The translations under genes were made by a program, and so were the position numbers. A stretch of DNA of 64,000 nt. Origin: an uncultured bacterium. GTDB lineage: Bacteria; Bacillota_I; Bacilli_A; RFN20; CAG-826. Positions 17,536 through 62,904 of the stretch are shown here, one piece after another. Location: positions 456,107-520,106 of the forward strand of contig CASDYC010000001.1 in the NCBI GenBank assembly GCA_949285665.1. Reading direction: 5' to 3'. The notes under the pieces are model-generated. The model saw only the letters and a list, made by a program, of their open reading frames with translations, was not told the DNA's origin and made no database searches. Position 1 is the stretch's first letter. Every line of letters starts with the position of its first letter.

Positions 17536-17537
17536 AA

Positions 17538-18416: not shown

Positions 18417-19251
18417 TCTTTTTTAACTCCACAATGAAATCATCAATATTTTTAACTTTATTAATATCAATAAATCTTTCAAAATCTCTACAAAACTCAA
18501 ATATTTTTGGCTTAACTATACCATAATTTTCTAAATCATCTCTTTTAAAAACACTATAAACATCATTAAAATCAATAACCTTACCTTTATCCATTAAAAT
18601 TACATCATTGCAACAATTTAAAACTAAATCCATATCATGAGTTACTAATAAAATTGAAACACCACTTTCATATAATTTTTTTAAAAGATTAATTAAATCG
18701 TTTTTACCACTTACATCTAGGCCACTTGTTGGCTCATCAAGCAATAAATATTTTGGTTTTAAGGCTAAAATTCCAGCTAAAGCAGCTCTTCTTTTTTCTC
18801 CCCCAGATAAATTAAGTGGACTTTTTTCATATAAATTTTCATTTAAATTAACTAATTTTAATGATTCAATTGCTAATTTTTTTGCTTCTTCTTTTTCAAT
18901 TTTAAAATTGAGTGGTGCAAACATAACATCATCTAAAACGGTATTTTCAAATAATTGATTTTCAGAAAATTGGAATAAATAACCAACTTTTTTTCTAATT
19001 TCTACAATATTTTTTTTAGATTTTTTATAATTACTTGTAATTTTAAAATCGTCCAAAATAACTTCACCATCATTTGGAATTAATAAACCATTTAAATGTT
19101 GTAAAAAAGTTGTTTTACCACTTCCAGTTTTTCCAATAATTGCTGTGAAAAAATGATCTTTAAGTTTTAAAGATATATTATTTAAAGCAGATGTTTCAAT
19201 ATCTGTTTTCTTATTATAAACATGAGTTAAATTATTTATAATGATTGCCAT
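18406..19251 (-). CDS. ecfA2: ECF transporter ATPase EcfA2
   Basis: Walker A GKTGSGKTT, signature LSGGEKRRAALA, Walker B LLLDEPTSGLD. It is the second ATPase of the module. Confidence 0.8.
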   Translation of the reverse strand: MAIIINNLTHVYNKKTDIETSALNNISLKLKDHFFTAIIGKTGSGKTTFLQHLNGLLIPNDGEVILDDFKITSNYKKSKKNIVEIRKKVGYLFQFSENQLFENTVLDDVMFAPLNFKIEKEEAKKLAIESLKLVNLNENLYEKSPLNLSGGEKRRAALAGILALKPKYLLLDEPTSGLDVSGKNDLINLLKKLYESGVSILLVTHDMDLVLNCCNDVILMDKGKVIDFNDVYSVFKRDDLENYGIVKPKIFEFCRDFERFIDINKVKNIDDFIVELKKNGK

Positions 19252-20054
19252 ATTTTATCCCTTATAGTTTTTAAAGAATCATTAAAATCTAGAGTAAAAC
19301 CAGCTTTTTTTAATTTAGTAACTAATTCATATTTAAAAGGTGGATTAATATTTAAAGTTTTTAATAATTCTTCGTTTTTAAATAAATTATCTGGTGTCCC
19401 ATCATATGATATTTTTTGATCTTTTAAAACTAAAACTCTATTAGTTAATAATACTTCTTCCATATTGTGAGTAATTATAATTAAAGTCATTTTATTATCA
19501 GTTTTTTTTAATTTTTCTATAATATTACTAACTTCTAATTCGCCTTTTGGATCAAGCATACTTGTAGCTTCATCAAAAATTAATAATGATAAATTTAAAG
19601 CTAGATTACTTGCAATTGCTACACGTTGTTTTTGTCCTCCAGATAATAAATTTGGCTGATATTTTTTATAATTAATCATGTCAACTAAGTTTAATTTTTC
19701 GTCAATAATTTTTGGCATATCTTTAGGATTTATACATCTATTTTCTAATCCAAAGGCAACATCATCTTCAACGGTATTTCCAATAAATTGATTATCAGGA
19801 TTTTGAAAAATCATTCCAAAATTTTTTCTTATTTCTTCATTTGATATTGAATAATTTTTATTTTTAAAAAATAATTCTCCTTTTGTGGGTTCAATTAACT
19901 TTGTTATTAATTTTCCAAGAGTTGATTTTCCAGATCCATTTTCTCCAATAATTGAAATAATTTCACCTTCGTTTATGCTAAAAGAGATGTTATTTAAAGC
20001 AACATCTTTTTTGTTATAAATTAAAGATACATTTTTTAATTCAATTAATTTCAT
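19236..20054 (-). CDS. ecfA1: ECF transporter ATPase EcfA1
   Basis: Walker A GENGSGKST, signature LSGGQKQRVAIA, Walker B IFDEATSMLD. It is the first ATPase of the module. Confidence 0.8.
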   Translation of the reverse strand: MKLIELKNVSLIYNKKDVALNNISFSINEGEIISIIGENGSGKSTLGKLITKLIEPTKGELFFKNKNYSISNEEIRKNFGMIFQNPDNQFIGNTVEDDVAFGLENRCINPKDMPKIIDEKLNLVDMINYKKYQPNLLSGGQKQRVAIASNLALNLSLLIFDEATSMLDPKGELEVSNIIEKLKKTDNKMTLIIITHNMEEVLLTNRVLVLKDQKISYDGTPDNLFKNEELLKTLNINPPFKYELVTKLKKAGFTLDFNDSLKTIRDKIWQSL

Positions 20055-43066: not shown

Positions 43067-43187
43067 CACTTATTAAAAAAATGTTTAAAGGCCTTAAATA
43101 GGTCTTTAAACATGATTAGGGTTTTAATATTTTTAACTAAATATTTCTATATATTTAAAAAAAATTATGTAATTGAAAGGAGATTTT

Positions 43188-45635
43188 ATGAAAAATAAAT
43201 TACTAATTTTTGCAACAGCTATCTTATTTAGTATTACATTAGCATCTTGTGATAATAACACAACTTCTTTAAGTAATACTACAACTAGCACTCAAACAAC
43301 AACTCAAACGACAACTACTACAACTACAACTACTACTACAACAACAACTAGTATTGATCCCGCAACAGTTTTAAGTAATGTTTTAAATCAATTAAAGTCA
43401 CCAATTTCATACGATGGAAAAATTGTTTTAAAACAAAATGGTATTGTTTTATCTCAAATGCATATTTATGGCTATCAAGGTGTTGGTGAAGTTTATATTA
43501 ATAGAGATGGCACAGCAATTCACTTATTTAAAGATGAAACTGGTTATGCAGTTCAAAAAATGATTAATCCTTTAAAAAATGAAGTTGTTAGTGTGCCACT
43601 TACATCTTCTTCGCAATATGTTTTATATGATGAATATGTATTTAATCCATTCCTTAGCTTAACTGCCGATGACTTAGTTTTAAGTGGTAATGAAATTACA
43701 ATTACTGCAACTCAAGAAAATGGTCTTGCTCAATCTTTAAGATATTTTGCTTTTTATACTGATGAGATGAAAGAAGTAAAATTAACTATTGATGATGTTG
43801 GGACAATTTTAAAAGTTGAATTATCAAGTGATAATATTACTTATACAGCAGATATTGTTGATAAAGAAACAATTAATGTTCCAGTAATTGAAGCAAAACA
43901 AGCAACTTCTGATCATCAAAAATTAACAGATTTATTTACTGAATTAGAAAAAGGTAATTATACGGTATCTTATAAATCTGTTTATGAAGATGGTACAGAA
44001 AGCATTGAATTAACATCATTTGATTTTAAATTAACTCCTGATGGTTTATTAACTTCTACTGGTCAAGGGTTCTTAGAAACTGATGATGGATTAGTTCAAG
44101 TTGAAGTAACAGATGATAATAAACTTCAAGGTGTTAGTTTACCAGATGATAGTGTTTCAATTCTTGATGATTTTGTAAATCCATTTTCTCAATTTAAAGC
44201 AGAGACTTTTGATTATGAAAATAACATATTTACTTTACCAGAATATATTGATTATGATTATTTAACATATATTCTTCCAGAAATACAATTTGTTTATAGT
44301 AGTACTTTTGGTTATGAAGTAACTCCAGGTAGTTTATCAATTACATTTAATGAAGATAATACTTATACAATTAATTATGAATATATTTATTATACATATA
44401 ATGATGATTATGAACTTGTATATGTTCCATTAAATGTTACAACAGTAATCTCTAATGTTGGAACTACTTCTTTAGGTTATACATTAGATGATTATATTCC
44501 AAAACCAAGACAAAATTCTTGGAGTGATGTTGAAGGAGCTTCTGATCTATTAGAAACTTATTCGATTCCAAGTGATTTACTTCCATTTTATTTACCAGAT
44601 GAAGCAGATGAATGGTACATTTATAGTGACATTTATTCTGGTGATAGTTTATGTTTATCATTCCCAACCGGTGATAATTTAGCAGCTCATTATGCTGAAT
44701 ATAAAAAATTATTAGAAGCAAAGGGTTGGCAATCTCAAGGTGTTGATGATTATGATGAAGAAAAATTTACATATACAACATCTGAAGGTACAATTTTAAA
44801 AATTGGTCTTGTGCAAGTAGAACAAACTGGTCAATATGAATATTACGAAATTGATATTTATTTATATGCTCCAGAAATTGCATCAGAGATCTCAAATTAT
44901 GTAAATGAAAATATTGTTAATAAACATAACTACACACTTACTGGTACATTAGTTGAAACTTATACTGAAGTTGATGCTGATGGAAATACTGTCGAAAATG
45001 GAATAGTCATCGAAAATACTTTAGTTGATGGTTTGACAACTTATGTAACTGAAGATGCTTATTATCAATATATAGAAACTGAAAAAGGAAAAGCAGGCGT
45101 TCTTTATAAAGAAACTCAAAGTAATGGCACCATAAATACTGAAGGATATATTGCAATGACAGATGATCCAAATGGAGAATTAACTTTCCAATATTCCGAA
45201 GATTTATCAATTGACGATTGGGAATTATATTTATGGGTTTATACATTAGATGATGTATTTAATGGATATACTCCACTAGTTGTTGAAGATGACTACACAC
45301 TTGTTGGAAATGAAGGTCAAGGATATTATGGATTTAACGTTTTTTCAGAAGTATTATCTCTTATAATGTTCCCAGAAGATGCTGGATTTGAATTGGATTC
45401 ACTTTTATCTGAAGAAACTTTATTAAAAATTGATGAAATAGATCCAGATTCAATTATTGTAACAATGGATCCAGAAACAAAAGCCATTCAATTAGTTATT
45501 TCTTGTTTTAGTGAATCTGGTGTTACTATTGACGAACAAGAAGGAAAAACATTTAATCATACTATTGAATTAATCGTTGATGTCTCTGATATTGGTACAA
45601 CAACAATCGATCTTGATTCATTTAATATTCAATAA
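43188..45635 (+). CDS. Large surface lipoprotein with a Thr-rich low-complexity linker (paralog 2)
   Basis: Signal MKNKLLIFATAILFSITLASC. Linker TSTQTTTQTTTTTTTTTTTTTT. It shares conserved blocks with paralog 1 (ELEKGNYT..., SW.DV.....LLE......LPFYLP...). Start at ATG 43188, preceded by AAAGGAG. The ORF-track TTG start at 43173 is rejected. Confidence 0.7.
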   Translation: MKNKLLIFATAILFSITLASCDNNTTSLSNTTTSTQTTTQTTTTTTTTTTTTTTSIDPATVLSNVLNQLKSPISYDGKIVLKQNGIVLSQMHIYGYQGVGEVYINRDGTAIHLFKDETGYAVQKMINPLKNEVVSVPLTSSSQYVLYDEYVFNPFLSLTADDLVLSGNEITITATQENGLAQSLRYFAFYTDEMKEVKLTIDDVGTILKVELSSDNITYTADIVDKETINVPVIEAKQATSDHQKLTDLFTELEKGNYTVSYKSVYEDGTESIELTSFDFKLTPDGLLTSTGQGFLETDDGLVQVEVTDDNKLQGVSLPDDSVSILDDFVNPFSQFKAETFDYENNIFTLPEYIDYDYLTYILPEIQFVYSSTFGYEVTPGSLSITFNEDNTYTINYEYIYYTYNDDYELVYVPLNVTTVISNVGTTSLGYTLDDYIPKPRQNSWSDVEGASDLLETYSIPSDLLPFYLPDEADEWYIYSDIYSGDSLCLSFPTGDNLAAHYAEYKKLLEAKGWQSQGVDDYDEEKFTYTTSEGTILKIGLVQVEQTGQYEYYEIDIYLYAPEIASEISNYVNENIVNKHNYTLTGTLVETYTEVDADGNTVENGIVIENTLVDGLTTYVTEDAYYQYIETEKGKAGVLYKETQSNGTINTEGYIAMTDDPNGELTFQYSEDLSIDDWELYLWVYTLDDVFNGYTPLVVEDDYTLVGNEGQGYYGFNVFSEVLSLIMFPEDAGFELDSLLSEETLLKIDEIDPDSIIVTMDPETKAIQLVISCFSESGVTIDEQEGKTFNHTIELIVDVSDIGTTTIDLDSFNIQ

Positions 45636-45738: not shown

Positions 45739-47151
45739 TTATTTAATATCTTCTACTGCTTGTTTAATAGATTCTTTTTGTGAAGTTTTTCCATATCTTT
45801 CAACAGACATTTTATCTTTTAATTCATGAGTTAAATTACATGGCCCTCCAACACAGCCTCCAACACAAGCCATACCTTCAATAAAGTTTCCGTCTAAGGT
45901 TCCATTTTTCATCTTGTTTAAAGCATCTCTACAAGCAGGAATTCCATCACATGGTACAGATTTTGCAATAAAATCAATATTTTGTTCTTTTAATGATTCA
46001 TTAATTGCATCTGTTAATCCACCACATCTTGCAAATATTCTTCCAAAATATGATGCATCATTTAATTGATCTTCTTTTAAGAGTTTCATATCAATTTCAT
46101 AAGCATCAATTAATGCTTGCAATTCTTCAAAAGTCATTGCAGAATCAATATATTTTTTAACTTTTTCATCTTTTATTTCTTGTTTTTTAGCAGTACATGG
46201 ACCAATAAAAACAATATAAGAATCAGGATATTTTTGCTTCATAACTTCTCCAATACATGCCATTGGAGATAAACTTGAAGAAATATTTTCAACTAAACTT
46301 GGAAAGTTCTTTTTAATATAAGAAACAAATGCTGGACAACATGAAGAAGTTAATTTTCCTTTTTCAGTTAATTCTTTTCCTTCATGAAGAGCAACAATAT
46401 CAGCACCTAGTGCAGCTTCAACAACTAAATCAAATCCTAGTTCTTTAATGGCAGATACGACTTGTCCAGTTTTAACTTCATAAAAGTTTGAACTAATTGA
46501 TGGAGCAATTACAGCAATCTTTTTGATATTTTCATCATTTAAATGATCAATTATATCTAAAATATATGAATCATCTACAACAGCTCCAAATGGACACATG
46601 TATACACAGTTTCCACATTGTATGCATTTATTGTCATCAATAATTGCATGTCCATCTTCACTTGAGTGAATTGCGTGAGTTTTGCAGGATTTTTCACAAG
46701 GTCTTATTCTATTTTCAATTGCATTATAAGGACAATTTTTAGCACATAATCCACAATTTATACACATCTCTTTATTAATATGTGCTCGTTGATTTTCATC
46801 AAAATAAATTGCTTTTTTAGGACATGATTGTTCGCATCGATGAGCAATACAACCTCTACAAGCATCGCCAATAAAATATCCACCAAGAGGACATTCATCA
46901 CACGCAATTGGAATAACTTTAATTACATTAGAATCATTTTTTTCTTTAGCTTTTAAAATTAAAGACATTCTTTCTTCAACTATTGCTCTTTCTTTATAAA
47001 TACAACATCTCATGGATGGTTTTGGACCTGGAACAATAATCTTAGGAATTTCTAATAATTTTTCTTTTAATTGATTATTTTTATAAGCAATAGCAACTTC
47101 TTTTAAAATTCTATATCTTAATTCTTGGACTCTTGTGTCAAATTTTGGCAT
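45739..47151 (-). CDS. [FeFe]-hydrogenase-family protein (N-terminal multi-[4Fe-4S] domain plus a compact H-cluster domain with non-canonical motifs)
   Basis: Ferredoxin-like motifs CINCGLCAKNCP and CIQCGNCVYMCP plus additional Cys clusters. H-cluster motifs TSSCCPAFVSYI (P1-like), IGPCTAKKQEI (P2-like) and EGMACVGGCVGGPCN (P3-like). RBS AAAGGAG. Confidence 0.7.
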   Translation of the reverse strand: MPKFDTRVQELRYRILKEVAIAYKNNQLKEKLLEIPKIIVPGPKPSMRCCIYKERAIVEERMSLILKAKEKNDSNVIKVIPIACDECPLGGYFIGDACRGCIAHRCEQSCPKKAIYFDENQRAHINKEMCINCGLCAKNCPYNAIENRIRPCEKSCKTHAIHSSEDGHAIIDDNKCIQCGNCVYMCPFGAVVDDSYILDIIDHLNDENIKKIAVIAPSISSNFYEVKTGQVVSAIKELGFDLVVEAALGADIVALHEGKELTEKGKLTSSCCPAFVSYIKKNFPSLVENISSSLSPMACIGEVMKQKYPDSYIVFIGPCTAKKQEIKDEKVKKYIDSAMTFEELQALIDAYEIDMKLLKEDQLNDASYFGRIFARCGGLTDAINESLKEQNIDFIAKSVPCDGIPACRDALNKMKNGTLDGNFIEGMACVGGCVGGPCNLTHELKDKMSVERYGKTSQKESIKQAVEDIK

Positions 47152-47175
47152 ATCAAACTCCTTTAAAAATATATA

Positions 47176-47199
47176 GGCATAAGATAATTCTTATGCCTA
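47176..47199 (-). terminator. Terminator downstream of adhE, also the 5' leader of the hydrogenase gene
   Basis: aggcataaga-taat-tcttatgcct is a perfect 10-bp stem. On the minus strand it is followed by AUAUAUUUUU. Confidence 0.55.
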
Positions 47200-47241
47200 C
47201 AAATTATTATACTATAAATTTCAAGTTAACTTAAATTACAA

Positions 47242-49869
47242 TTAGTTGCCTTTATATGCTTTACGCATAATTTCTTTCATATCTTCAACCATTGGAATTC
47301 TTGGATTTGCGGTTGTACATTGATCTTCAAATGCAAGATAAGCTAAATCATCTAATGATTCATCCCAAGCTTTTTCATCTTTTACCCAACATGAGAAGTT
47401 TGGATCAACACCACATTCTTTAATTAATGTAGCAACAGCATCTGCAAGTTTATCAACAGCATCATGTAAATCTTTATATTTAATGCCAATTACATCACAT
47501 ATTTCAGCATATTTTTCTGGAGCACAATAATAATTATATTTTGGCCAAGTAGTTAATTTTTGAGGTAAGATTTTACCATTATATCTAATAACATGTGGTA
47601 ATAAAATTGCGTTTGCAAGACCATGTGGAACATGCCATTCACCACCAATTTTATGAGCCATTGAGTGACACATACCTAAGAAAGCATTTGCAAATGCCAT
47701 ACCAGCAATTGTACTAGCATTATGCATTTTTTCTCTTGCTTCTAAATCATGCTTCCCATCTTTTACACATCTTACTAAATATTTAAATACAATTTTAATT
47801 GCTTGTAATGCAAGACCATCCGTATAATCACTTGCTAAAACACTTGTATATGCTTCAATTGCATGAGTTAAAACATCAAGACCAGTCCAAGCTGTTGTTG
47901 CTGGAGGTAAATTTGTTGTAAATTCTGAATCAACAATAGCGATTGTTGGAGTTAAAGAATAATCAGCTAATGGATATTTCTTCATATTAGCTTTATCAGA
48001 AATAACTGCAAATGGAGTTACTTCACTACCAGTGCCAGATGTTGTTGGAATACAAATAAGTTTAGATTTTTTACCTAATTCAGGATATTTAATAGCTCTT
48101 TTTCTAATGTCCATGAATTTTTGTTTTAAATCATCAAAATTAACTTCTGGATGTTCATAGAATAACCACATACCTTTTGCAGCATCCATACAGCTACCAC
48201 CACCTAAAGCAATAATTGTATCTGGTTGGAAGGATTGCATTAAAGCTACACCTCTTTTAACTGTTGAAATATCTGGATCTGGTTCGACATCACAGAATAA
48301 AGCTGTTGTGACTTTATTTCTTCTTAAATTTAATTGTTCAGTAATTTTATTTAAGAAACCAAGTTCAACCATTGAACCATCTGTTACGATACAAACTCTA
48401 TTTACATTTCTACAAGTTCTTAAATATTCAATTGAGTTTCTTTCAAAATAAATTTTTGAAGGAACTTTAAACCATTGCATTGTATTTCTCCTTTTTCCGA
48501 TTTTTTTGATATTGATTAAATTGATACAACTAATATTTCCTGCAACCGAGTTATGACCATAACTTCCACAACCAAGTGTCATTGAAGGAATAAATGAGTT
48601 GTAGATATTACCAATTCCACCAAATGATGTTGGAGAATTCCAAATGATTCTACAAGCTTCACATCTTTTACCAAATTCATCAGCTAATTCTTGAGATTTT
48701 GTATGAATACATGCACTATGGCCTAAACCATTAAGTTCAACCATTTGTTCACTTAATTTTAAACCTTCTTCATTATCTTTTGCTTTTAAGATAGCTAAAA
48801 CTGGTGATAATTTTTCTCTTGATAATGGTTCTTCATAACCAACCTTTTTAATCTTAACAGCTAAGATAACTGTTTCTTTTGGAACGCTAAATCCGGCTTG
48901 TTCAGCAATCCAAACTGCTGATTTTCCAGCAACTTTAGAATTAAGACTTAATAATTGGCAATCTTTGCTATATGCTTTATTGCCAAACATAAACATTTCT
49001 AATTTTTCTTTTTCTTCTTCGTTTACAAAATAAACGTTATATTTTTTAAATAAATCAACTGCTTCATCGTATACATCTTTATGAATAATTGCAGCTTGTT
49101 CACTTGCACAAACCATACCATTATCAAATGATTTGGACATAACAATGTCATTTACTGCTTGTTTTACGTCTGCGTCTGAAGCAATAAATGCAGGAACGTT
49201 ACCAGCACCAACGCCTAAAGCAGGTTTTCCACAGCTATAAGCTGATTTAACCATTGAGTTTCCACCAGTTGCAAGAATTGTAGCGACACCAGGATGTTTC
49301 ATTAATGCACTTGTTGCAGCCATTGATGGTTTATCAATCCATTGAATACAATTTTTTGGAGCACCATTTGCAACCGCTGCTTCTAAAATAACTTGAGCAG
49401 CCATTTTAGAACATTGTTGTGCATTTGGATGGAAAGAAAAAATAATAGGATTACGTGTTTTTAAAGAAATTAAACACTTAAAAATTACAGTTGAAGTTGG
49501 ATTGGTTACTGGTGTAATACCACAAATAACACCAACTGGATCAGCAATTTCAGTAATTCCAGTAACAGGATTTTCTGAAATTATACCAACTGTTTTCATA
49601 TGTCTCATATGATTAACAACGTATTCACATGCGAATAAATTTTTTGTTGCTTTATCTTCAAAAACTCCTCTTTTTGTTTCTTCAATTGCTGCTCTTGCAA
49701 GTATTCCATGTTTATCAAGTGCAGCACATGAACATTTTGCAACAATCAAATCAACTTGTTCTTGATCTAATTTTAAAAATTCTTCTAATGCTTTTTGTCC
49801 TTTTACAACTAAGTCATTAACCATTGTATCGACTTCAAGTTGTTTTTCATCTTTTTTAATTTCTTCCAT
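47242..49869 (-). CDS. adhE: Bifunctional acetaldehyde-CoA/alcohol dehydrogenase AdhE
   Basis: 875 aa. N-terminal ALDH domain and C-terminal Fe-ADH domain (GGGSCMDAAKGMW and the HSMAHKIGGEWHVPHG His cluster). It starts 4 nt downstream of rex. Confidence 0.85.
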   Translation of the reverse strand: MEEIKKDEKQLEVDTMVNDLVVKGQKALEEFLKLDQEQVDLIVAKCSCAALDKHGILARAAIEETKRGVFEDKATKNLFACEYVVNHMRHMKTVGIISENPVTGITEIADPVGVICGITPVTNPTSTVIFKCLISLKTRNPIIFSFHPNAQQCSKMAAQVILEAAVANGAPKNCIQWIDKPSMAATSALMKHPGVATILATGGNSMVKSAYSCGKPALGVGAGNVPAFIASDADVKQAVNDIVMSKSFDNGMVCASEQAAIIHKDVYDEAVDLFKKYNVYFVNEEEKEKLEMFMFGNKAYSKDCQLLSLNSKVAGKSAVWIAEQAGFSVPKETVILAVKIKKVGYEEPLSREKLSPVLAILKAKDNEEGLKLSEQMVELNGLGHSACIHTKSQELADEFGKRCEACRIIWNSPTSFGGIGNIYNSFIPSMTLGCGSYGHNSVAGNISCINLINIKKIGKRRNTMQWFKVPSKIYFERNSIEYLRTCRNVNRVCIVTDGSMVELGFLNKITEQLNLRRNKVTTALFCDVEPDPDISTVKRGVALMQSFQPDTIIALGGGSCMDAAKGMWLFYEHPEVNFDDLKQKFMDIRKRAIKYPELGKKSKLICIPTTSGTGSEVTPFAVISDKANMKKYPLADYSLTPTIAIVDSEFTTNLPPATTAWTGLDVLTHAIEAYTSVLASDYTDGLALQAIKIVFKYLVRCVKDGKHDLEAREKMHNASTIAGMAFANAFLGMCHSMAHKIGGEWHVPHGLANAILLPHVIRYNGKILPQKLTTWPKYNYYCAPEKYAEICDVIGIKYKDLHDAVDKLADAVATLIKECGVDPNFSCWVKDEKAWDESLDDLAYLAFEDQCTTANPRIPMVEDMKEIMRKAYKGN

Positions 49870-49873
49870 TTTT

Positions 49874-50515
49874 TTACCTCTCTTTTCTTTTTAAAATTAA
49901 TTGATGATATAAATTAGCATAGCTAGATGCCATAGACATGTTTGAAACAACAATATTTGGATTTACATTAATTGCAATTGTCGCAAAATTCCATATCGCT
50001 TCAATTTTTGTTTGATTTAAGATATCAACTACTTCTTGAGCATGATTATTTGGAACTGTTAAAATTGCAACTGAAATGTTATTTTTATCTACATAATCTT
50101 TAAGTTCTTTTAGTGGATAGACATTAATACCATTAATATCTACTTCGTATAATAATGGATTAATATCAAATGCTGCAATAATATTTAAACCATTCTTTTT
50201 AAAGTCATCAAAATTTAACAAAGCTTTTCCAAGATGACCGGCACCAATTAAAACAGCATTTAATTCTTCTTTCACACCAACAATTTTCATTAAGTCATTA
50301 ATTAAAACCGATACTTTTCTTCCAATTCTTGGTAAGCCTTTTTCACTTGAAATAGCCGCTAAATCTTTTTTAACTACTTCAATGTTTAATTTAAGAACAT
50401 TTGCAAACTCACGATTGGAAATATAAGTATTATCATCAAAATTAATGGACCTTAAGTAATCCAAATAAAGCGGGTATCTTTGAACTTGATTCTGAGATAA
50501 TTTGTTCCTTTTCAT
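49874..50515 (-). CDS. rex: Redox-sensing transcriptional repressor Rex
   Basis: N-terminal winged helix (RYPLYLDYL). Rossmann NADH-binding motif IGAGHLGKALL. 213 aa. Confidence 0.8.
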   Translation of the reverse strand: MKRNKLSQNQVQRYPLYLDYLRSINFDDNTYISNREFANVLKLNIEVVKKDLAAISSEKGLPRIGRKVSVLINDLMKIVGVKEELNAVLIGAGHLGKALLNFDDFKKNGLNIIAAFDINPLLYEVDINGINVYPLKELKDYVDKNNISVAILTVPNNHAQEVVDILNQTKIEAIWNFATIAINVNPNIVVSNMSMASSYANLYHQLILKRKER

Positions 50516-54311: not shown

Positions 54312-57300
54312 TTATAAACCGAATTTTTTAATTCTTTCGTATCTTTCTTTTGCAGTTCTTTCACATTTTTCGAGTAATTCTTCTGCGTGTTCAGGATTAA
54401 CTTTTGGAAGTTGTGAGAATCTTGATTCTTTCATAACGAATTCTCTAATCTTTGTGAAGTCAGGTTCCTTACTATCTAATGTTAAGCAAGGTTTTCCTAA
54501 TTCTGCATTTCTTGGATCAAATCTAAAGATTGGGAAATATCCAGATTCAACTGCTTCTCTTTCAACTTGCATTGAATTAGATAAACCACCTTTAATACCA
54601 TGGTTAGCACATGGTGAATAACAAATAATTAAACTTGGTCCATCATAACTTTCAGCTTCTTTCATAGCTTTAATAGCTGCCATTGGATTTGCTCCAAGTG
54701 CAATTTGAGCAACATAGACATTTCCATATGCCATTGCCATTAATGCTAGATTTTTCTTACTTGTTGTTTTACCACTTGCAGTAAATTTAGCAATTGAACC
54801 AGTTTGACTTGATTTAGAAGATTGACCGCCAGTATTAGAATAAACTTCTGTATCTAATACTAAGACATTAATATCATCTTCACTTGCAAGAACATGATCA
54901 AGACCGCCGTAGCCAATATCATAAGCCCAGCCATCTCCACCAATAACCCAGACTGACTTGTCAATTAAATCTTTTTCAAATTTTAAGACTTCTTTAACTT
55001 CTTGATCTTTTGAAGCTTTAACTAATGAAACTAAATTACTAACAAGTCCTCTAACTACATCTTTATTTTTAATATTTTCAAGATATTTATTAATAACTTG
55101 TTTTAATTCATCTTCAACATCATCTTTATTTAAAGCTGCAGATAAAATTTTAACAATTTGAGATAATTTATAATTTGTTGCAACTCTCATACCATAGCCG
55201 AATTCTGCATTATCTTCAAATAATGAGTTAGACCATGCAATACCATTTTTATCTTTATCATTTACAAATGGAGTAAGTGGAGTTGAACCACTATAAATTG
55301 AGGAACAACCAGTTGCATTTGCAACCATCATATCTTTACCAAATAATTGTGACAATAATCTATAATAAGGAGTTTCACCACAGCCAGCACATGCACCAGA
55401 AACTTCCATATATGGCATTAAGAATCCAACACCTTTGACCATTGTAAGTGGGAATTTATCACTCTTATAAGATACATGTTTATATAAGTAATCTGCACCT
55501 TCTTCTTGATCAAATTGTGATTTAGCTTCTTCCATTGTAAGAGCCATTTTACCATTTCCAGATTTTAATGCAGCTTTATTAGCCATACATTCATTTACAC
55601 ATAAACCACAGCCAACACAGTTTCTAGCAGAAACTTGAATTCTGAATTTTAATCCAGCAACATTTGGTCCACCTTTTGCATCGACTACATCATTTTTGAC
55701 AACGTCAGGAGCCTTTGCCAATTCTTTTTCATCAATTAAGAATGGTCTAATTGTTGCATGTGGACAAACAAATGCACATTGGTTACATTGAATACAGTTT
55801 TCTTTATGCCACATTGGAACTCTATCAGCGATACTACGTTTTTCTTTAAATGTAATATCTTCTTCCATTGTGCCATCTAATAATTCAAATTCTCTAAATT
55901 TAGAAACAGGTAAATTATCTCCATCAAGAGAGCCAATTGGAGTAACATATGAATCAAAATAATCATCACCAATTAAATGTACTTCTCTAAGTGGTGGAAG
56001 TTTTGCCCATTCTGGATCGACTTTAACTTCTCTTAAACCTTCGGTACCTCTATCGATTGCTTTAAAGTTACTAGCAACGACTTCTGGTCCTTTTTTAGCA
56101 TATGTTTTTTCAGCAAATTTTTTCATCCATTTATTTGCTTCTTCATATGGCATAATATTTTGATTTAAGTAGAAGAAACTAGATTGAAGAATTGTATTTG
56201 TATGTCTTCCCATACCAGTTTCTTGAGCGATTTTATTAGCATCAATTACAAAGAATTTAGCATGTTTTGTAGCTAATTGATATTTAACTCTATTTGGAAG
56301 AGTTTCAATAAGTGTCTTATCATCCATATCTGTATTTAATAAGAATGTTCCACCATCTTCCAAATTCTTTAACATATCAAATTTAAATAAATAAGTATCT
56401 AAACTACAAGAAATAAAGCTTGCATGTTCAACATAATATGTTGATCTAATCGGAGTTTTACCAAATCTTAAGTGAGATCTTGTAACACCACCAGCTTTTC
56501 TTGAGTCATATGCAAAATATGCTTGAGCATATTGTCCAGTTTCATCACCAATAATTTTAATACTTGATTTATTAGCACTAACTGTACCATCACTACCTAA
56601 ACCATAGAATAAGCATGATGTATAATCACCTTTAACATGATAATTTTCATCAACTGGAATTGATAAATGAGTTACATCATCATTAATACCAACTGTGAAA
56701 TTATGATGTGGATTGTGATCTAAGAAATCAAATACACTCTTAATATGTTTTGGTTGAGTATCTTTACTTGAAAGACCATATCTTCCACCAAATACTTCAA
56801 TATCTTTTAAGCCTTCTTTATTTAATGCAGCAACTACATCTAAATATAAAGGTTCTCCAAGAGCACCAGATTCTTTTGTTCTATCTAAAACAGCAATTTT
56901 CTTAACTGTTTTTGGTAATTTCATTACTAAATGTTTACTTGAAAATGGTCTAAATAAGTGAACTTTAATTAAACCAACTTTTTCACCTTTAGCAAGTAAA
57001 TCATCGATTACTTCTTTTGTAGTTTCAGTAACACTACCCATTGCAACGATAACTTTTTCAGCATCTTTTGCACCATAATATGTAAATGGAGCATATTCTC
57101 TCCCGGTTAATTCGCTTGCTTTTTTAAAGTAGTAATCAGCAATATCAACTACTTTATCAAATTCTTTATTTTGAGCTTCTCTTGCTTGGAAATAAATATC
57201 ATCATTTTCAGCACCACCTCTTGTGACTGCATGTCCATGAGGATTTAAAGCTCTTGCTCTAAATTCATCTAATTTTTCTTGATTGATTAATTTTTTCCAT

Positions 57301-57878
57301 TCTTCTGGATCAACAAATTCAACATTTTGAATTTCATGAGATGTTCTAAATCCATCAAAGAAATGGCAAACTGGAATTGAAGAATCAATTGCAAGTAAAT
57401 GAGCAACACTTGCTAAATCAGCAACTTCTTGAACACTATGTGAACAAATCATTGTTACACCAGTTTGTCTAATTGCATAAACATCTTGATGATCTCCAAA
57501 AATTGAAAGTGCACGTGTTGCTAAACTTCTAGCAGAAACGTGTAAAACAGCTGGTAATAATTCACCAACCCATTTATAAATATTAGGAATCATCAATAAT
57601 AAGCCTTGAGAGGCTGTGTAAGTAGTTGCTAAAGCACCAGCTTGAAGAGCACCGTGAACTGTACCACTTGCGCCACCTTCTGATTGCATTTCGACAACTT
57701 TAACAGTATTTCCAAAAAAATTTAATTTACCTTGGCTTGCATAAACATCAACTAATTCAGCCATTGGTGATGATGGAGTAATAGGAAAGATTCCAGCTAC
57801 TTCAGTAAACATATAAGATGTTAAAGCTGCAGCAGTATTTCCATCACAAGATAATTTTGTCTTTTTAACTTCTGACAT
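54312..57878 (-). CDS. nifJ: Pyruvate:ferredoxin (flavodoxin) oxidoreductase, single-chain
   Basis: 1188 aa. Two ferredoxin motifs (CIQCNQCAFVCP and CVGCGLCVNEC) and the TPP-binding region GGDGWAYDIGYGGLDHV. RBS AAGGAG. Confidence 0.9.
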   Translation of the reverse strand: MSEVKKTKLSCDGNTAAALTSYMFTEVAGIFPITPSSPMAELVDVYASQGKLNFFGNTVKVVEMQSEGGASGTVHGALQAGALATTYTASQGLLLMIPNIYKWVGELLPAVLHVSARSLATRALSIFGDHQDVYAIRQTGVTMICSHSVQEVADLASVAHLLAIDSSIPVCHFFDGFRTSHEIQNVEFVDPEEWKKLINQEKLDEFRARALNPHGHAVTRGGAENDDIYFQAREAQNKEFDKVVDIADYYFKKASELTGREYAPFTYYGAKDAEKVIVAMGSVTETTKEVIDDLLAKGEKVGLIKVHLFRPFSSKHLVMKLPKTVKKIAVLDRTKESGALGEPLYLDVVAALNKEGLKDIEVFGGRYGLSSKDTQPKHIKSVFDFLDHNPHHNFTVGINDDVTHLSIPVDENYHVKGDYTSCLFYGLGSDGTVSANKSSIKIIGDETGQYAQAYFAYDSRKAGGVTRSHLRFGKTPIRSTYYVEHASFISCSLDTYLFKFDMLKNLEDGGTFLLNTDMDDKTLIETLPNRVKYQLATKHAKFFVIDANKIAQETGMGRHTNTILQSSFFYLNQNIMPYEEANKWMKKFAEKTYAKKGPEVVASNFKAIDRGTEGLREVKVDPEWAKLPPLREVHLIGDDYFDSYVTPIGSLDGDNLPVSKFREFELLDGTMEEDITFKEKRSIADRVPMWHKENCIQCNQCAFVCPHATIRPFLIDEKELAKAPDVVKNDVVDAKGGPNVAGLKFRIQVSARNCVGCGLCVNECMANKAALKSGNGKMALTMEEAKSQFDQEEGADYLYKHVSYKSDKFPLTMVKGVGFLMPYMEVSGACAGCGETPYYRLLSQLFGKDMMVANATGCSSIYSGSTPLTPFVNDKDKNGIAWSNSLFEDNAEFGYGMRVATNYKLSQIVKILSAALNKDDVEDELKQVINKYLENIKNKDVVRGLVSNLVSLVKASKDQEVKEVLKFEKDLIDKSVWVIGGDGWAYDIGYGGLDHVLASEDDINVLVLDTEVYSNTGGQSSKSSQTGSIAKFTASGKTTSKKNLALMAMAYGNVYVAQIALGANPMAAIKAMKEAESYDGPSLIICYSPCANHGIKGGLSNSMQVEREAVESGYFPIFRFDPRNAELGKPCLTLDSKEPDFTKIREFVMKESRFSQLPKVNPEHAEELLEKCERTAKERYERIKKFGL

Positions 57879-58845: not shown

Positions 58846-59259
58846 TTATTTTCCTTTTTTCTTATTTTTTGTTTTTAATTCTTTATTAATTAAGTATCTT
58901 AAATGTTTCAAATCTTGATTTGAAAATTTATAATGTCGATCGATAAAACCATTGTCTAATAAGAGTTTTGAATAAATAAAATCCATTGTTGTTTGATTTG
59001 GATCATATTTTAATCTTTTTGTTTTTTTCTTGGTTTCTTTTTTCATTGAGTTTGAAATATAATCTTCAATATTTTTTTCTAAATTTCTAAAATTATAATT
59101 TTCAACAATCATTCTCAACATTGGTTCAAAATAAATTAAATCGTCAATAATTAAGTCGGCCTTGATATTTACCCCTTTTGATAAAGTATCAACATCGACA
59201 ATTTTTTTATTTGTTGACTTTAAAAATTTATCGTATTTTTTTAAATTAGATAACTTCAT
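58846..59259 (-). CDS. Small Lys-rich basic protein of unknown function
   Basis: 137 aa, very high K content. It sits between the thioesterase-like gene (overlapping it by 14 nt) and galU (4-nt gap). Confidence 0.35.
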   Translation of the reverse strand: MKLSNLKKYDKFLKSTNKKIVDVDTLSKGVNIKADLIIDDLIYFEPMLRMIVENYNFRNLEKNIEDYISNSMKKETKKKTKRLKYDPNQTTMDFIYSKLLLDNGFIDRHYKFSNQDLKHLRYLINKELKTKNKKKGK

Positions 59260-59998
59260 TTATTTTACCTTCAACGTTGCACTTAAAAACAACCAAATCA
59301 TTTGAAATTCCAATCATTTCTTCTTTATTTTCATCAACCTTATATTTATAGACTTTAATAACATCATTAATATAAGATTGTTTTATAAAATCAACTTGAA
59401 TTGAATCAATTAAATCAAAACTAGAAGAATTAAAAATAATTTCAACATATTTTGCATTATTCATGTGTTTATTTCGATCATAATAACTTCTATAAACTTT
59501 AAATTCATCAACATATTTAAAATTTTTATCGAGTTTAAAGTTTAATTTTTTTAAACTTTCAAGAGAAATTTTATCCCAATATCCTTTATTAAAATCTAAT
59601 TGTCTTCTAATTTCTACAAATTTAGTTTTTAAATTAAAAACAGTCCAAACAGATGAGGCTTTGATCAATAATTCATCATTTAAATCATAAACTTCAAATT
59701 CTCTCATATAGTCAATTTTATTTGGTTTTAATGGCCATGTTTTAATTTTTACTTTTTTTAATTCTTTAACTCTTTTAATTATTTGATATTTTTGTCTAAT
59801 TAAAACCCAAATTAAATTATCCTTAATCAAATCATAAAAACCAAGACCGTTTTCTTCGGCCTGAATTGTTGCCGCTTCTTGTAAAATATCAAAAATAGCT
59901 TCTGGTTTTAAGTTATCATCTTGGTCTAATTGACCACTTGTTATATTGAAAGTATAAGTATTAATTAAAAAGTCGTTCATAGTATGTATATTATACAT
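59246..59998 (-). CDS. Acyl-ACP thioesterase-like (hot-dog fold) protein
   Basis: 250 aa. The pattern DNLIWVLIRQKYQIIKRVKELKKVKIKTWP....REFEVYD...LIKASSVWTVFNLKT parallels acyl-ACP thioesterase family members. Confidence 0.5.
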   Translation of the reverse strand: MYNIHTMNDFLINTYTFNITSGQLDQDDNLKPEAIFDILQEAATIQAEENGLGFYDLIKDNLIWVLIRQKYQIIKRVKELKKVKIKTWPLKPNKIDYMREFEVYDLNDELLIKASSVWTVFNLKTKFVEIRRQLDFNKGYWDKISLESLKKLNFKLDKNFKYVDEFKVYRSYYDRNKHMNNAKYVEIIFNSSSFDLIDSIQVDFIKQSYINDVIKVYKYKVDENKEEMIGISNDLVVFKCNVEGKINEVI

Positions 59999-60054: not shown

Positions 60055-60822
60055 TTATTCTTGAGTAAATAAATATTTTTTAAATATCTTTATAATTAAT
60101 TCAAAAATTACAACATAGAATACAATAATTAAAATACTACCAATTAAATCCGAAGTATTTAGAGAATCTTTATATATTTTAATTAAAAATCCTAATGAAT
60201 TTTCTTGTAAAACTAAATATTCACACATTACCGTTGTCTTAAAAGCTAAGCCAATTCCTTGAAATAAAGACATAATAATATATGGAAAAATCATTGGTAT
60301 AAATATTTTAAAAAACTTAATAAATATATTTGCTTTATTTAATTCTAAATCATCTAATATATCTTTATTTATATTATTAATTCCATTTATGTTAGCTTCT
60401 AATAATAATGGAATTAATAACATACAAGTTACTACATAATTAACTCCATTACTTGGTAAAATTAAAAATAAATATAAAGTAATTGCTGCAAGTGGAGCAA
60501 CTTTAAAAATATATAAAATTGGTTTAAATAAATTTAAAAGTGGCTTATATAATACAAATATAAAAGTTAAAAATAATGAAATAATAAAAGAAATAACTAC
60601 ACTAATTAATACTCTAAAAAATGAATAAGCTAGAGGAACAAATTTACTTAAATCATAAAAAAATCCACCAAAGCTAACAAATACAGAACTTAAATCAGGA
60701 TATACAAATTCATTATTTTGAAATATAGTTATAAAAAAATATATTAAAATTACTACTAAAATCCCACTAATTCCAAATAAATATGGACTATAAGTAGAAA
60801 TCTTCTTTTGGATCTTCACCAT
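60055..60822 (-). CDS. ABC transporter permease (binding-protein-dependent, 6 TM)
   Basis: Polytopic 255-aa protein with an EAA-like loop (LLEANINGINNINKDILDDLELNKANIFIKFFKIFIP). It lies directly downstream of a binding-lipoprotein gene. Confidence 0.55.
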   Translation of the reverse strand: MVKIQKKISTYSPYLFGISGILVVILIYFFITIFQNNEFVYPDLSSVFVSFGGFFYDLSKFVPLAYSFFRVLISVVISFIISLFLTFIFVLYKPLLNLFKPILYIFKVAPLAAITLYLFLILPSNGVNYVVTCMLLIPLLLEANINGINNINKDILDDLELNKANIFIKFFKIFIPMIFPYIIMSLFQGIGLAFKTTVMCEYLVLQENSLGFLIKIYKDSLNTSDLIGSILIIVFYVVIFELIIKIFKKYLFTQE

Positions 60823-61786
60823 AAGTATTAAGATTTAAATCTTTTAATAAATCTAAATAAAAATTAATTGCTTCTTTATCAGTATTTATATCATCTTCTA
60901 CTTTTATATTAGAATTTGGAATTGCTGATTTTAATACATCAATAGAAAACGTTGAAAATGTTGAAATATTATTTTTTGCATTATTCGCCGTTGTTTCAAT
61001 ATCAATATTTGAATCATTAATGGTATTTTTAAAATTATCTAAAATATCAAGATTATAATTTTCAATATAATTTTCTGATACAAACAAAGCTGCTTGAGGA
61101 TAAGAAGATTTTCCAGTTATTTTCTTATATTCTTTTTGCATATCAATAATATTAAATTTTAAACCTTTAGACTTTAATTGACTTAAAGATGGTTCAGCAA
61201 TAATAATTGTGTCAACTTTATTAGATGTAAATTGAGCAACTGCATCTGCTACATCACTTGTATAATCAATACTACAATTTTCAATATTATTAGAATCTAA
61301 TATTGTTCTTAAAATAATATCTGGAGTATTGTTTTTTTGAAATGCTAATATTTTATTATTATTTAAATCGTCTAAACTACTTATAGTTTTTGAAATAATA
61401 TAAAAATTACCCCAAACAATACTTCTATAGTATTTATAATAACTACCTTTATTATAAGTTGTTAAACCTACAGTTAATGGAGCAACAATAAAATCATATT
61501 CTTGTTTTTCTGATATAAAATTTGGAGCAAGTAAATCAGCTCCCCCAACAGTTAGTGATCCTTGATGTTCAGCTTCAAAATTTGCAAGAGCTAATGCTGG
61601 AGTTCCACTAGGTGTTAAAACTTTTATTTCATCTTTAACTGGTTTATCAGTTACATTATTACTAGTTGTTGTAACTTCTGTCTTTGTTTTATTTGATAAT
61701 TTTGTGTCTGAATTATTTTGACAAGATGATAAAAATAAAATTGGTAATATAGATATAATTAAAAATTTGTTTTTCATAAATTTCAC
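60788..61786 (-). CDS. ABC substrate-binding lipoprotein (NMT1/SsuA-like fold suspected)
   Basis: Lipoprotein signal MKFMKNKFLIISILPILFLSSC. Thr/Asn-rich linker. 332 aa. Co-oriented with the permease. Confidence 0.5.
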   Translation of the reverse strand: MKFMKNKFLIISILPILFLSSCQNNSDTKLSNKTKTEVTTTSNNVTDKPVKDEIKVLTPSGTPALALANFEAEHQGSLTVGGADLLAPNFISEKQEYDFIVAPLTVGLTTYNKGSYYKYYRSIVWGNFYIISKTISSLDDLNNNKILAFQKNNTPDIILRTILDSNNIENCSIDYTSDVADAVAQFTSNKVDTIIIAEPSLSQLKSKGLKFNIIDMQKEYKKITGKSSYPQAALFVSENYIENYNLDILDNFKNTINDSNIDIETTANNAKNNISTFSTFSIDVLKSAIPNSNIKVEDDINTDKEAINFYLDLLKDLNLNTYGEDPKEDFYL

Positions 61787-61820
61787 CCTATAAAATTATA
61801 CTTTTAATCTATCAAAAAAA

Positions 61821-61838
61821 ATGTGATAATTATCACAT
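61821..61838. promoter_or_regulatory. Perfect 18-bp CRP/FNR-type palindrome ATGTGATAATTATCACAT (TGTGA-N6-TCACA)
   Basis: Exact inverted repeat in the divergent promoter region. It abuts the ATG of the Crp/Fnr-family gene at 61839 and lies 35 nt upstream of the binding-protein gene. Confidence 0.55.
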
Positions 61839-62432
61839 ATGTTAGATAATTTAATTATTTTTTTTATAAATAATAAAGAAAACTATGCAAAAATTAATCT
61901 TAATAAAAATGAAGTTTTATTTTTTGAAAATCAAAAAAACGAAAATATTTATTTTATCTTAAAAGGGGAAATTAATATTTCTACAAATCAATTTAATGAA
62001 GAAATTATTTTCAACACTTTGAAAGAAAATGATATTTTTGGAAATAATAATATATTTTCAAAAGATAAAATTGTAAAAGGTACGGCATTTGCAAAAAAGA
62101 AAACTAAACTTTTAGTAATTGATAAATTAAGTTTTATAAATTTATTAAAAAATGATTTATTTTTAGAAGAATATTTAACATATCAATCAAATATTATAAT
62201 TACTCAAAAAGCTTATTTAAGATTATTAAAAATTAACAACTTAAAAAATAAACTTATATATTTATTAAAAGAAAATAATAATCAATATAAATATGAATCA
62301 ATTAATAAACTTTCAATCTATTTAGCTACAACAAGAGAAAATTTATCAAGAACATTAAGTAAATTAGAAAAAGAAAATATTATTTCTATAAAAAATAAGA
62401 TTATATTTCTAAATAATGAATCAATTATTTAA
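61839..62432 (+). CDS. Crp/Fnr-family transcriptional regulator
   Basis: N-terminal cNMP-binding beta-roll (IYFILKGEINIS) and a C-terminal helix-turn-helix (RENLSRTLSKLEKENII). Confidence 0.65.
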   Translation: MLDNLIIFFINNKENYAKINLNKNEVLFFENQKNENIYFILKGEINISTNQFNEEIIFNTLKENDIFGNNNIFSKDKIVKGTAFAKKKTKLLVIDKLSFINLLKNDLFLEEYLTYQSNIIITQKAYLRLLKINNLKNKLIYLLKENNNQYKYESINKLSIYLATTRENLSRTLSKLEKENIISIKNKIIFLNNESII

Positions 62433-62904
62433 CAAAAATTGAACCAACTCCTATTAAACCACCGACAATTGGAAATACACCAGCAATAATTGTTCCCGTT
62501 CCAATTCCATAAGAGACAAGTTCGTTTTTTAAATTATCAAAAATATCACCAAGACCACCTTCAGAAGAACTTATAGCTGTATATGTAGATGGAGCAATGA
62601 AAAACATAACACCACCGACAATTGCTAAAACTCCACCGATTAATTTCAATATTTTATTATTACTAAATAACAAAAGAGCACCAATTAAACTTAAAATAAA
62701 TCCTAATAAACTCATTACTAAAATACTATTCTCGTTTAATCCAAAGACATAATCACTAAGATTAAATAAATTTATTGGTTCACCTTCATTAATGCTCATT
62801 GTGATACCAGTAAAGGCTAAACCAATCAGAAATAAAAAGGTTATAATTCCGCCTAAATTATTAACAAAATAACCTTTGATTCCAGAAGAAGCTTTTTTTG
62901 CCAT
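62425..62904 (-). CDS. Small Gly-rich membrane protein of unknown function
   Basis: 159 aa with four hydrophobic segments rich in small residues. RBS AGGAGGAA. Confidence 0.35.
   Translation of the reverse strand: MAKKASSGIKGYFVNNLGGIITFLFLIGLAFTGITMSINEGEPINLFNLSDYVFGLNENSILVMSLLGFILSLIGALLLFSNNKILKLIGGVLAIVGGVMFFIAPSTYTAISSSEGGLGDIFDNLKNELVSYGIGTGTIIAGVFPIVGGLIGVGSIFVK

Follow-up and report, generated by a model that had tools for sequence, protein, structure and literature searches.

A predicted Crp-type operator between a Crp/Fnr-family regulator gene and a divergent transporter operon that lacks an ATPase gene

What does a perfect palindrome do when it abuts the start codon of a regulator gene and faces, across a few dozen nucleotides, a transporter operon that has no ATPase gene? 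The locus that raises this question lies in an uncultured bacterium of the Bacilli_A lineage (RFN20; CAG-826), within 64,000 nucleotides (nt) of contig CASDYC010000001.1 (assembly GCA_949285665.1, forward-strand positions 456,107 to 520,106), a stretch that we call the window and whose own numbering we use for its features. A first, sequence-only reading of the window had pointed to an exact TGTGA-N6-TCACA site one base before the ATG of a Crp/Fnr-family regulator and facing a divergent binding-lipoprotein/permease operon. We think it probable, taking the explanation as a whole, that this palindrome is an operator at which the neighbouring regulator activates the ATP-binding cassette (ABC) transporter genes and represses its own gene, and that the transporter obtains its ATPase from elsewhere. 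The argument turns on the following features.

60055-60822, minus strand: ABC-type permease gene, 255 amino acids (aa), NitT/TauT-like, overlapping the binding-protein gene by 35 nt
60788-61777, minus strand: substrate-binding lipoprotein gene, 329 aa, with signal peptide, lipobox LSSC and an NMT1/SsuA/ThiY-type class II fold
61783-61789, minus strand: Shine-Dalgarno (SD) sequence AGGGTGA of the binding-protein gene, 5 nt before ATG 61777
61795-61800, minus strand: predicted -10 hexamer TATAAT of the transporter promoter, starting 30 nt from the operator centre
61821-61838, both strands: operator, perfect 18-bp palindrome ATGTGATAATTATCACAT, centred between 61829 and 61830
61822-61830, plus strand: possible extended -10 element TGnGATAAT inside the operator, a sequence reading only
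61839-62432, plus strand: Crp/Fnr-family regulator gene, 197 aa, with Pfam domains cNMP_binding and HTH_Crp_2

The 18-mer contains a 16-nt core, TGTGATAATTATCACA (61822-61837), that matches TGTGA-N6-TCACA exactly, and the regulator's ATG at 61839 directly abuts the 18-mer, with the single base T61838 between core and ATG; the coordinates and a scan of the window both bear out what the sequence-only reading had reported here. The exact pattern is found at no other place in the 64 kb window, where chance predicts 0.07 occurrences (7 of 100 shuffled sequences contain at least one), and a search that allows one mismatch still returns this single match, where 2.3 would be expected by chance. The significance of the palindrome thus lies in its exactness, position and conservation, and not in the loose pattern. 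The search for further sites that had been proposed for the genome was run on the 64 kb window and yielded no second exact site there. The divergent starts, the regulator's ATG and ATG 61777 of the binding-protein gene, are 61 nt apart, and this 61-nt intergenic region, operator included, is 100% identical between strains whose genes differ at a synonymous divergence (dS) of 0.11-0.17; the G+C content of the window is 26%. The distance from the palindrome to the binding-protein gene, previously put at 35 nt, is 43 nt when measured to the likely start at ATG 61777, which is also the start in public gene calls (329 aa). The shorter figure is wrong because it was counted from GTG 61786, which lies inside the SD sequence of that ATG.

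To place the locus in its family, about 100 related loci were gathered by a genome scan with the binding-protein alignment (13 loci, all from gut or rumen metagenome-assembled genomes (MAGs) labelled Bacilli or Erysipelotrichaceae), by look-ups of distant binding proteins, and by a metagenome scan (441 relatives confirmed, 80 kept); dereplication of the genome and metagenome scans at 90% binding-protein identity left 73 substrate-binding-protein clusters. A divergent Crp/Fnr gene is present in 57 of the 71 loci that have at least 900 nt upstream of the binding-protein gene, and all 50 dereplicated regulator-bearing loci carry a TGT[G/A]A-N6-T[C/T]ACA palindrome in the intergenic region, 29 of them perfect and 21 with one mismatch. 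Close relatives of the window regulator are few (10 matches among 5.8 billion proteins), and even those that are only 35-40% identical are encoded in the same arrangement, divergent from a binding protein and permease and with no ATPase gene. The regulator evolves faster than the transporter, with 41% identity to its counterpart in the related locus L028 as compared with 60% for the binding protein and 64% for the permease, and all three genes are under purifying selection, with ratios of nonsynonymous to synonymous divergence (dN/dS) of 0.075-0.20, the value for the regulator being 0.20 against a 93% identical strain. The binding-protein profile recovers 1546 representatives (50% identity) at E <= 1e-30 and 3193 at E <= 1e-10; members that are named bear just the generic 'NitT/TauT family ... 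substrate-binding protein', and a literature search for the three-gene unit (with hydABC, Crp and ABC) found no relevant publication. Judged from these loci, the regulator with its divergent binding protein and permease forms a conserved unit, widespread in uncultured gut, rumen and digester anaerobes.

The regulator itself has the expected architecture, with an N-terminal beta-roll (cNMP_binding, PF00027, 53.7 bits against a cut-off of 27.5, residues 20-106) and a C-terminal helix-turn-helix (HTH) domain (HTH_Crp_2, PF13545, 29.3 bits against a cut-off of 27), and its start column in the alignment is common to its orthologues. Its recognition helix reads TRENLSR, in which R166, E167 and R171 align with R180, E181 and R185 of E. 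coli CRP and were invariant in our first alignment. Across the wider family, helix and site change together: an R-E-x3-R helix goes with TGTGA...TCACA in 19 clusters and an R-P-x3-R helix (once R-A) with TGTAA...TTACA in 24, and the base that is switched in the site is the one contacted by E181 of CRP. There is one hybrid case, L055, in which an R-E-x3-R regulator (3855-4478 of that locus) is found with a mixed operator, TGTAACAAATATCACA, that has one half-site of each type and precedes the binding-protein gene, which is at 4540. The L055 regulator is placed close to the base of the clade holding the Pro-type regulators, and it may represent an intermediate stage in the switch of specificity. 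Because the Pro-type regulators are monophyletic, the switch represents a single event in the family and not 24. It is informative not by its count but because it agrees with the CRP-DNA structure and with the independent case of HcpR and HcpR2, for which the pairing of Glu-to-Pro with G-to-A has been published (PMC1274295). The palindrome is most likely the Crp-type site of the neighbouring regulator, which would bind it as a dimer through R166-E167-x3-R171, in the way that Crp/Fnr proteins bind 5-N6-5 (or 5-N4-5) inverted repeats; the sequence-only reading had already made this assignment, and it is now supported by both conservation and helix-site co-variation.

What such binding would do is suggested by the geometry of the two promoters. 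On the transporter strand, a TATAAT-like hexamer (at least 5 of 6 bases) is found at offset +30 from the palindrome centre in 46 of the 50 dereplicated loci and a perfect TATAAT in 37 of them, against a background of 5.6% at other offsets. With the -10 hexamer set at -12 to -7, this offset places the operator centre at -41.5 of the predicted transporter start, which is the class II activator position of CRP and FNR. No -35 match is present for the transporter promoter at this locus, and a generic sigma-70 scan, which requires a -35 box, misses it, a result that is consistent with activator dependence and is not evidence for it. On the regulator side, most of the family has the operator, then 12-16 nt with a clear SD, then the ATG, often with a TATAAT 8-9 nt upstream of the operator; this layout puts the operator at or just after the regulator's transcription start. 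From these computed regularities we infer that a regulator dimer bound at the operator, 41.5 bp upstream of the predicted start, would activate the transporter operon in class II fashion, and that the same dimer, covering the regulator's own -10 and start region, would repress regulator synthesis. The regulator would be translated from an mRNA without an SD, either leaderless or with a short AU-rich leader, and the NitT/TauT-like transporter would be energised by an ATPase encoded elsewhere. The autoregulation that had been implied by the sequence-only reading gains support from an operator at or just after the regulator's promoter, and its remark that the site faces the operon can be taken further, given that the site stands at a fixed -41.5 upstream of a conserved TATAAT, as in activator geometry. 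Loci of the TGTAA type (e.g. L029, L039, L052, L054, L068, L072) also have a conserved TG(C/T)AAA(T/G)AA stretch 5-10 nt after the TATAAT, around the predicted transporter transcription start.

The regulator's start in the window is unusual in its own right. ATG 61839 is the first in-frame start after a stop, TAA 61827-61829, that lies within the palindrome, and with this stop inside the palindrome and the ATG abutting the operator there is no room for an SD, just as the sequence-only reading had noted. About 14 lineages of Bacilli MAGs low in G+C, which form a clade, have this SD-less state, with an operator-to-ATG gap of 1-8 nt and no SD-like sequence, and the window is the extreme among them at 1 nt; loss of the SD is a derived state of this one clade. 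Inside the operator, TGnGATAAT, an extended -10-like element, can be read on each strand of the palindrome, and it is not conserved in relatives of the TGTAA type, where an SD and an upstream TATAAT take its place. The regulator mRNA could start inside the operator from this element, 0-2 nt before the ATG, and so be leaderless or near-leaderless, as was first proposed; alternatively, a start just upstream of the operator is possible and would give a leader of about 20 nt without an SD. Leaderless translation is therefore one of two possibilities.

As to the effector, for which the sequence-only reading had listed cyclic AMP (cAMP), another nucleotide or a redox signal, the protein gives mostly negative indications. 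Among the cAMP contacts of CRP (G71, E72, R82, S83, T127, S128) only the Gly is kept; in the alignment N69 stands in place of E72, V (in most relatives Y) in place of R82, and K in place of S83. These three replacements, together with a score of 30 bits against the cut-off of 266 for the NCBIfam CRP equivalog, make cAMP an unlikely effector. With the Fnr model the score is 16 bits (cut-off 228), and the curated CRP, FNR, NtcA and FtrB models all fall far under their cut-offs. The window regulator contains no Cys, His or Trp, and its only Met is the initiator; with no Cys, His or internal Met, thiol-, heme- or Fe-S-based sensing by this protein is unlikely, and with it the redox signal. The family as a whole differs in this respect, since a Cys in an E-G-x-x-C motif is kept in 43 of 45 dereplicated regulators, the exceptions being the window lineage (Asn34, codon 61938-61940) and its nearest relative L028 (Phe), and a thiol may well have a role in the rest of the family.

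The nearest textbook parallels are CRP of E. coli in its action at class II promoters and those members of the Crp/Fnr family that regulate themselves, as FNR does from a site at its own promoter. With these the regulator shares a beta-roll joined to a Crp HTH, an R-E-x3-R helix, a TGTGA-N6-TCACA site, a predicted site at -41.5 in place of a -35 box, and a site that overlaps the regulator's own promoter. Unlike them, it appears to be local and not global, with one site in 64 kb that is always beside its target, and its gene has no SD; unlike CRP, it does not keep the cAMP contacts and scores far under the CRP and FNR equivalog cut-offs, and unlike FNR, it has no Cys cluster for a [4Fe-4S] centre, the window protein being Cys-free. 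The best solved relative by sequence is HcpR of P. gingivalis (9DAY; E 6e-7, weak at 33 bits). HcpR and HcpR2 have the same two site types and the same Glu-to-Pro/G-to-A correspondence and likewise occur in anaerobic Firmicutes and Bacteroidota, and divergently transcribed HcpR2 paralogues beside permease genes have been mentioned (PMC1274295). The target here differs, being a binding-protein/permease pair and not hcp or frdX, and across 73 representative loci (618 kb, in which not every open reading frame was scanned against Pfam) there is no recurrent neighbour family of the size of hcp. Met68 is the heme-ligating residue of P. gingivalis HcpR (PMC12750200), whereas the window regulator offers no internal Met, His or Cys for heme binding.

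The other half of the question is how the transporter is energised. The permease gene is followed by 56 nt and then by an acyl-ACP thioesterase gene (59246-59998), and the same permease-thioesterase arrangement is found in independent assemblies of the species (L001, L002/L009, L003). In the family, an ABC ATPase gene starting within 1.5 kb downstream is absent from 63 of 65 related loci, each with at least 1.2 kb of downstream sequence; the two exceptions are a TetR plus ABC-2 exporter module and a 599-aa exporter-type protein. The description of the operon as one without an ATPase gene therefore holds, and the ATPase gene that the sequence-only reading thought might appear immediately beyond the permease on a corrected assembly is found neither in the independent assemblies nor in those 63 loci. 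Absence of the ATPase gene is a family trait and not an assembly gap. Of the two explanations originally offered, that the pump borrows an ATPase or that it is incomplete, the second is unlikely if taken to mean decay, because dN/dS is 0.075 for the binding protein and 0.18 for the permease (0.075-0.20 over the whole unit). The default and most likely reading, which we infer, is that the ATPase is encoded elsewhere and borrowed.

The precedent is RibXY of Chloroflexi and Actinobacteria, likewise a two-gene operon, whose binding protein is of the NMT1 type and whose permease is of the NitT/TauT type. An ATPase gene is usually missing from it, and the pair, expressed in E. coli with no ATPase of its own, transports riboflavin (PMC4418817). 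The two systems differ in their control, which is by a flavin mononucleotide riboswitch in RibXY and by a protein regulator here, where the 61-nt intergenic region is too short for a riboswitch; no Rfam family reached threshold in the window or in three regulator-less loci. An orphan ATPase, which had been suggested as a thing to look for, was sought in the 64 kb window by Walker A and signature motifs and by Pfam, and the search found only Opp-type, ECF (EcfA1/A2/T) and two exporter ATPases. None of these could be assigned to the permease as partner; they belong to Opp, ECF and exporter systems. The ECF ATPases were considered further, given that the pair lies after ecfA1-ecfA2-ecfT-truA in L026 and near bioY in L025, and were set aside when the association did not recur in the 73 representative loci. 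In L026 (2398-7845) the pair follows that cluster directly, and in the window the ECF-truA cluster (16798-20054) is 40 kb from the pair. One Opp-type ABC ATPase of the window (733-2877, minus strand, 714 aa) has its ABC_tran domain split by a long insertion and is far longer than the usual OppD/OppF. In two Clostridia-type loci a DUF2779 protein is encoded directly after the permease (L023 4054-6000, L024 3538-4956).

The transporter proteins themselves place the system in a broad group without naming its substrate. The permease scores 23.0 bits with BPD_transp_1, under the Pfam cut-off of 26.4, and is clearly homologous to orthologues with recorded PF00528 matches; its NCBIfam matches, SaoP, NtrB and TauC, lie at 1e-7 to 1e-11 and far under their cut-offs. 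The EAA-x3-G coupling loop is not kept in the window permease, which has DDLELNKA, and the family consensus has no conserved EAA or Gly, with one subclade retaining LEAAELDGA. The best curated match is SaoP, from the selenocysteine-assisted organometallic ABC system of C. difficile (4.9e-11; orthologues reach 5e-19), and both permeases belong to the nitrate/sulfonate/taurine group. Membership in SaoP was nevertheless rejected, on a score of 43 bits against a cut-off of 295 and because Sao has its own ATPase, SaoA; the unit also lacks the selenocysteine of that system.

For the binding protein, the Pfam NMT1 match is weak (23.9 bits), and the AlphaFold model (predicted local distance difference test score 88) has a class II binding-protein fold. 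Its top Foldseek match is 3hn0 (TM-score 0.83 on the target, E 2.8e-16, 21% identity), followed by entries titled 'Enzyme of biosynthetic pathway' (7an5-7an9, 7ahr, 7ywc), PqqT, ThiY and SsuA, with MqnA/MqnD lower, so that the fold matches span ligand classes from pyrroloquinoline quinone and thiamine to a pyrimidine precursor and sulfonates. The protein in 3hn0, BDI_1369 of Parabacteroides distasonis, a structural-genomics entry labelled as a nitrate transport protein/ABC transporter, is also the one relative with a solved structure that a sequence comparison gives for the binding protein (E 1.9e-7); it has no known ligand or function and so does not reveal the substrate. Assignment of a substrate from structure was dropped for this reason, the closest fold having no known ligand and the others spanning many classes. 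Among the near-invariant residues of the binding protein are several Asp, Glu, Asn, Gln and Tyr but neither Arg nor Lys, a composition that makes a simple anion, nitrate or a sulfonate for instance, slightly less likely as the ligand.

The surroundings of the unit offer one recurrent association. Genes for HydA or HydB, the catalytic and the NADH-binding subunit of a multimeric [FeFe]-hydrogenase, lie near the unit in 26 loci from 18 of 57 binding-protein clusters at 70% identity, and are its most frequent neighbours apart from its own three genes; besides the binding protein and the permease, what recurs in the 73 representative loci is HydA, HydB and lineage-specific housekeeping genes. In regulator-less loci the binding-protein gene comes directly after hydB-hydA, in places overlapping hydA by 4 nt, and in many regulator-bearing loci the order is hydC-hydB-hydA, a convergent regulator gene, then binding protein and permease. 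Hydrogenase-adjacent loci include the following.

Without a regulator gene: L074, L079, L086, L092, L106, L108
With a regulator gene: L022, L034, L039, L071, L088, L091, L099, L103

The unit in the window is not adjacent to a hydrogenase gene; genes for hydrogenase, adhE, rex and pyruvate:ferredoxin oxidoreductase lie 2-14 kb away. They form a fermentative redox cluster at 45739-50515, with an [FeFe]-hydrogenase gene (45739-47151, 470 aa), the bifunctional aldehyde/alcohol dehydrogenase gene adhE (875 aa) and rex, and further on the pyruvate:ferredoxin oxidoreductase gene (54312-57878, 1188 aa). The Rex-like repressor (49874-50515, 213 aa) has Put_DNA-bind_N and CoA_binding domains and is encoded beside adhE and the [FeFe]-hydrogenase gene. 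A link to nucleosides, suggested by deoB and xerD beside the unit in many Bacilli MAGs, was discarded as lineage-specific housekeeping synteny that is absent elsewhere. Among other genes of the window, a predicted membrane protein of 159 aa (62425-62904, minus strand) without a Pfam or NCBIfam match converges on the regulator gene with an 8-nt 3' overlap and is conserved in the same species and not in the wider family. Two further open reading frames on the plus strand, 40675-43029 (784 aa) and 43173-45635 (820 aa), have no Pfam match at E <= 1e-5.

Several other explanations deserve to be weighed against activation with autorepression. The regulator might repress both divergent genes, with promoters held in the operator itself and an effector that releases the protein. 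An extended -10-like TGnGATAAT on each strand of the window palindrome would fit such a design, as would a regulator ATG 1 nt from the core, suited to a leaderless start from that element, and operators that overlap promoters are what repressors usually have. However, the internal -10-like element is absent from TGTAAC-type operators, while the spacing of the external TATAAT is kept in 46 of 50 loci; the transporter promoter also lacks a -35 box, as is typical of activator-dependent promoters, and has its site at the textbook class II position for CRP and FNR. We consider dual repression rather unlikely. A different protein, the Rex encoded in the window, would come to mind because its consensus, TTGTGAA-N4-TTCACAA, also reads TGTGA-N6-TCACA, because its gene adjoins adhE and an [FeFe]-hydrogenase gene, and because related transporter units often stand beside hydABC, which is a common Rex target. 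But 4 of the 14 positions specified by that consensus are not matched by the site, which a search tolerating 3 mismatches does not recover, and the G-type orthologues, which have T/C after TGTGA and A/G before TCACA and never the AA/TT of Rex, all depart from the consensus at the two inner of those 4 positions. The site moreover follows the helix of the adjacent regulator and keeps its activator-type spacing, and searches with each of the two common consensus sequences brought up no Rex-type site ahead of adhE, rex or the hydrogenase gene. Rex was rejected as the operator-binding protein on the consensus mismatches and the co-variation with the Crp/Fnr helix, and such a role seems scarcely credible. 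It is just as hard to see the inverted repeat as an RNA hairpin that acts, from the 5' leader of the regulator mRNA, on translation or stability. In many relatives that leader probably includes the repeat, and the change from TGTGA to TGTAA is compensatory on both arms, so that pairing is preserved; yet the arm sequences are conserved beyond mere complementarity, the distance to TATAAT is fixed on the other strand, where the repeat is not transcribed, the changed base matches the changed recognition-helix residue, and the stem would have only 7 AT-rich pairs with a 4-nt loop. We regard the hairpin as extremely improbable.

On the side of the transporter, the alternative to borrowing is that binding protein and permease work without any ABC ATPase, as a facilitator or a sensor. 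This would fit genes that are under purifying selection in a very large family (1546 representatives at E <= 1e-30), with no linked ATPase gene in 63 of 65 loci and no EAA--G coupling motif in the family consensus. Against it, a good EAA--G loop (LEAAELDGA) survives in one subclade, it is well known for several systems to share an ATPase encoded elsewhere, with ribXY as a precedent, and to our knowledge no BPD_transp_1 permease acts without a nucleotide-binding partner. Operation without an ATPase is thus decidedly unlikely in our estimate. One might speculate further that an ATPase-independent transporter of this kind serves the electron-bifurcating [FeFe]-hydrogenase HydABC, as a supply of cofactor or metal or as a sensor, under an HcpR-like Cys-sensing regulator whose Cys was lost in the window lineage; we think this very unlikely.

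The reading that we prefer, an operator that would activate an ATPase-less transporter and autorepress the regulator, with the ATPase coming from elsewhere, has points of its own against it. All of its support is comparative, being drawn from sequence positions, and its transcription starts are predicted ones. Hexamers resembling a -10 box are common in AT-rich DNA, and the -10 at 61795-61800 puts the predicted transporter start at the SD, with a leader of only about 13 nt. Both strands of the operator carry TGnGATAAT, which in the window leaves room for a reading as pure repression, and the helix-site switch, having happened once, counts as one event. The non-canonical EAA loop of the window permease and of the family consensus is a poor fit to a standard partnership with an ATPase. 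Finally, the window regulator lacks the sensor-domain residues G31, C34, L71, Y79 and Y142, which are near-invariant in the family, and its response to an effector may have changed or been lost.

Having arrived at a probable role for the palindrome, the next question is why it matters. The site itself is a textbook Crp-type operator for one neighbouring operon, and the mechanism is conventional for this family of regulators. The wider interest is in the three-gene unit, which defines a family, large and so far uncharacterised, among uncultured anaerobes of gut, rumen and digester. Its promoters follow an unusually strict layout, 46 of 50 lineages having the site at -41.5, and the family is marked as well by a clean switch of regulator-site specificity, by the constant absence of an ATPase gene, and by repeated adjacency to hydrogenase genes. 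Direct experiments would be simple to plan from the predictions made here for operator, promoter and specificity residues. Identifying the substrate and the energising partner would close a gap in the annotation of transporters for genome-reduced Bacilli and Clostridia, and it might reveal a supply or sensing route tied to hydrogen metabolism.

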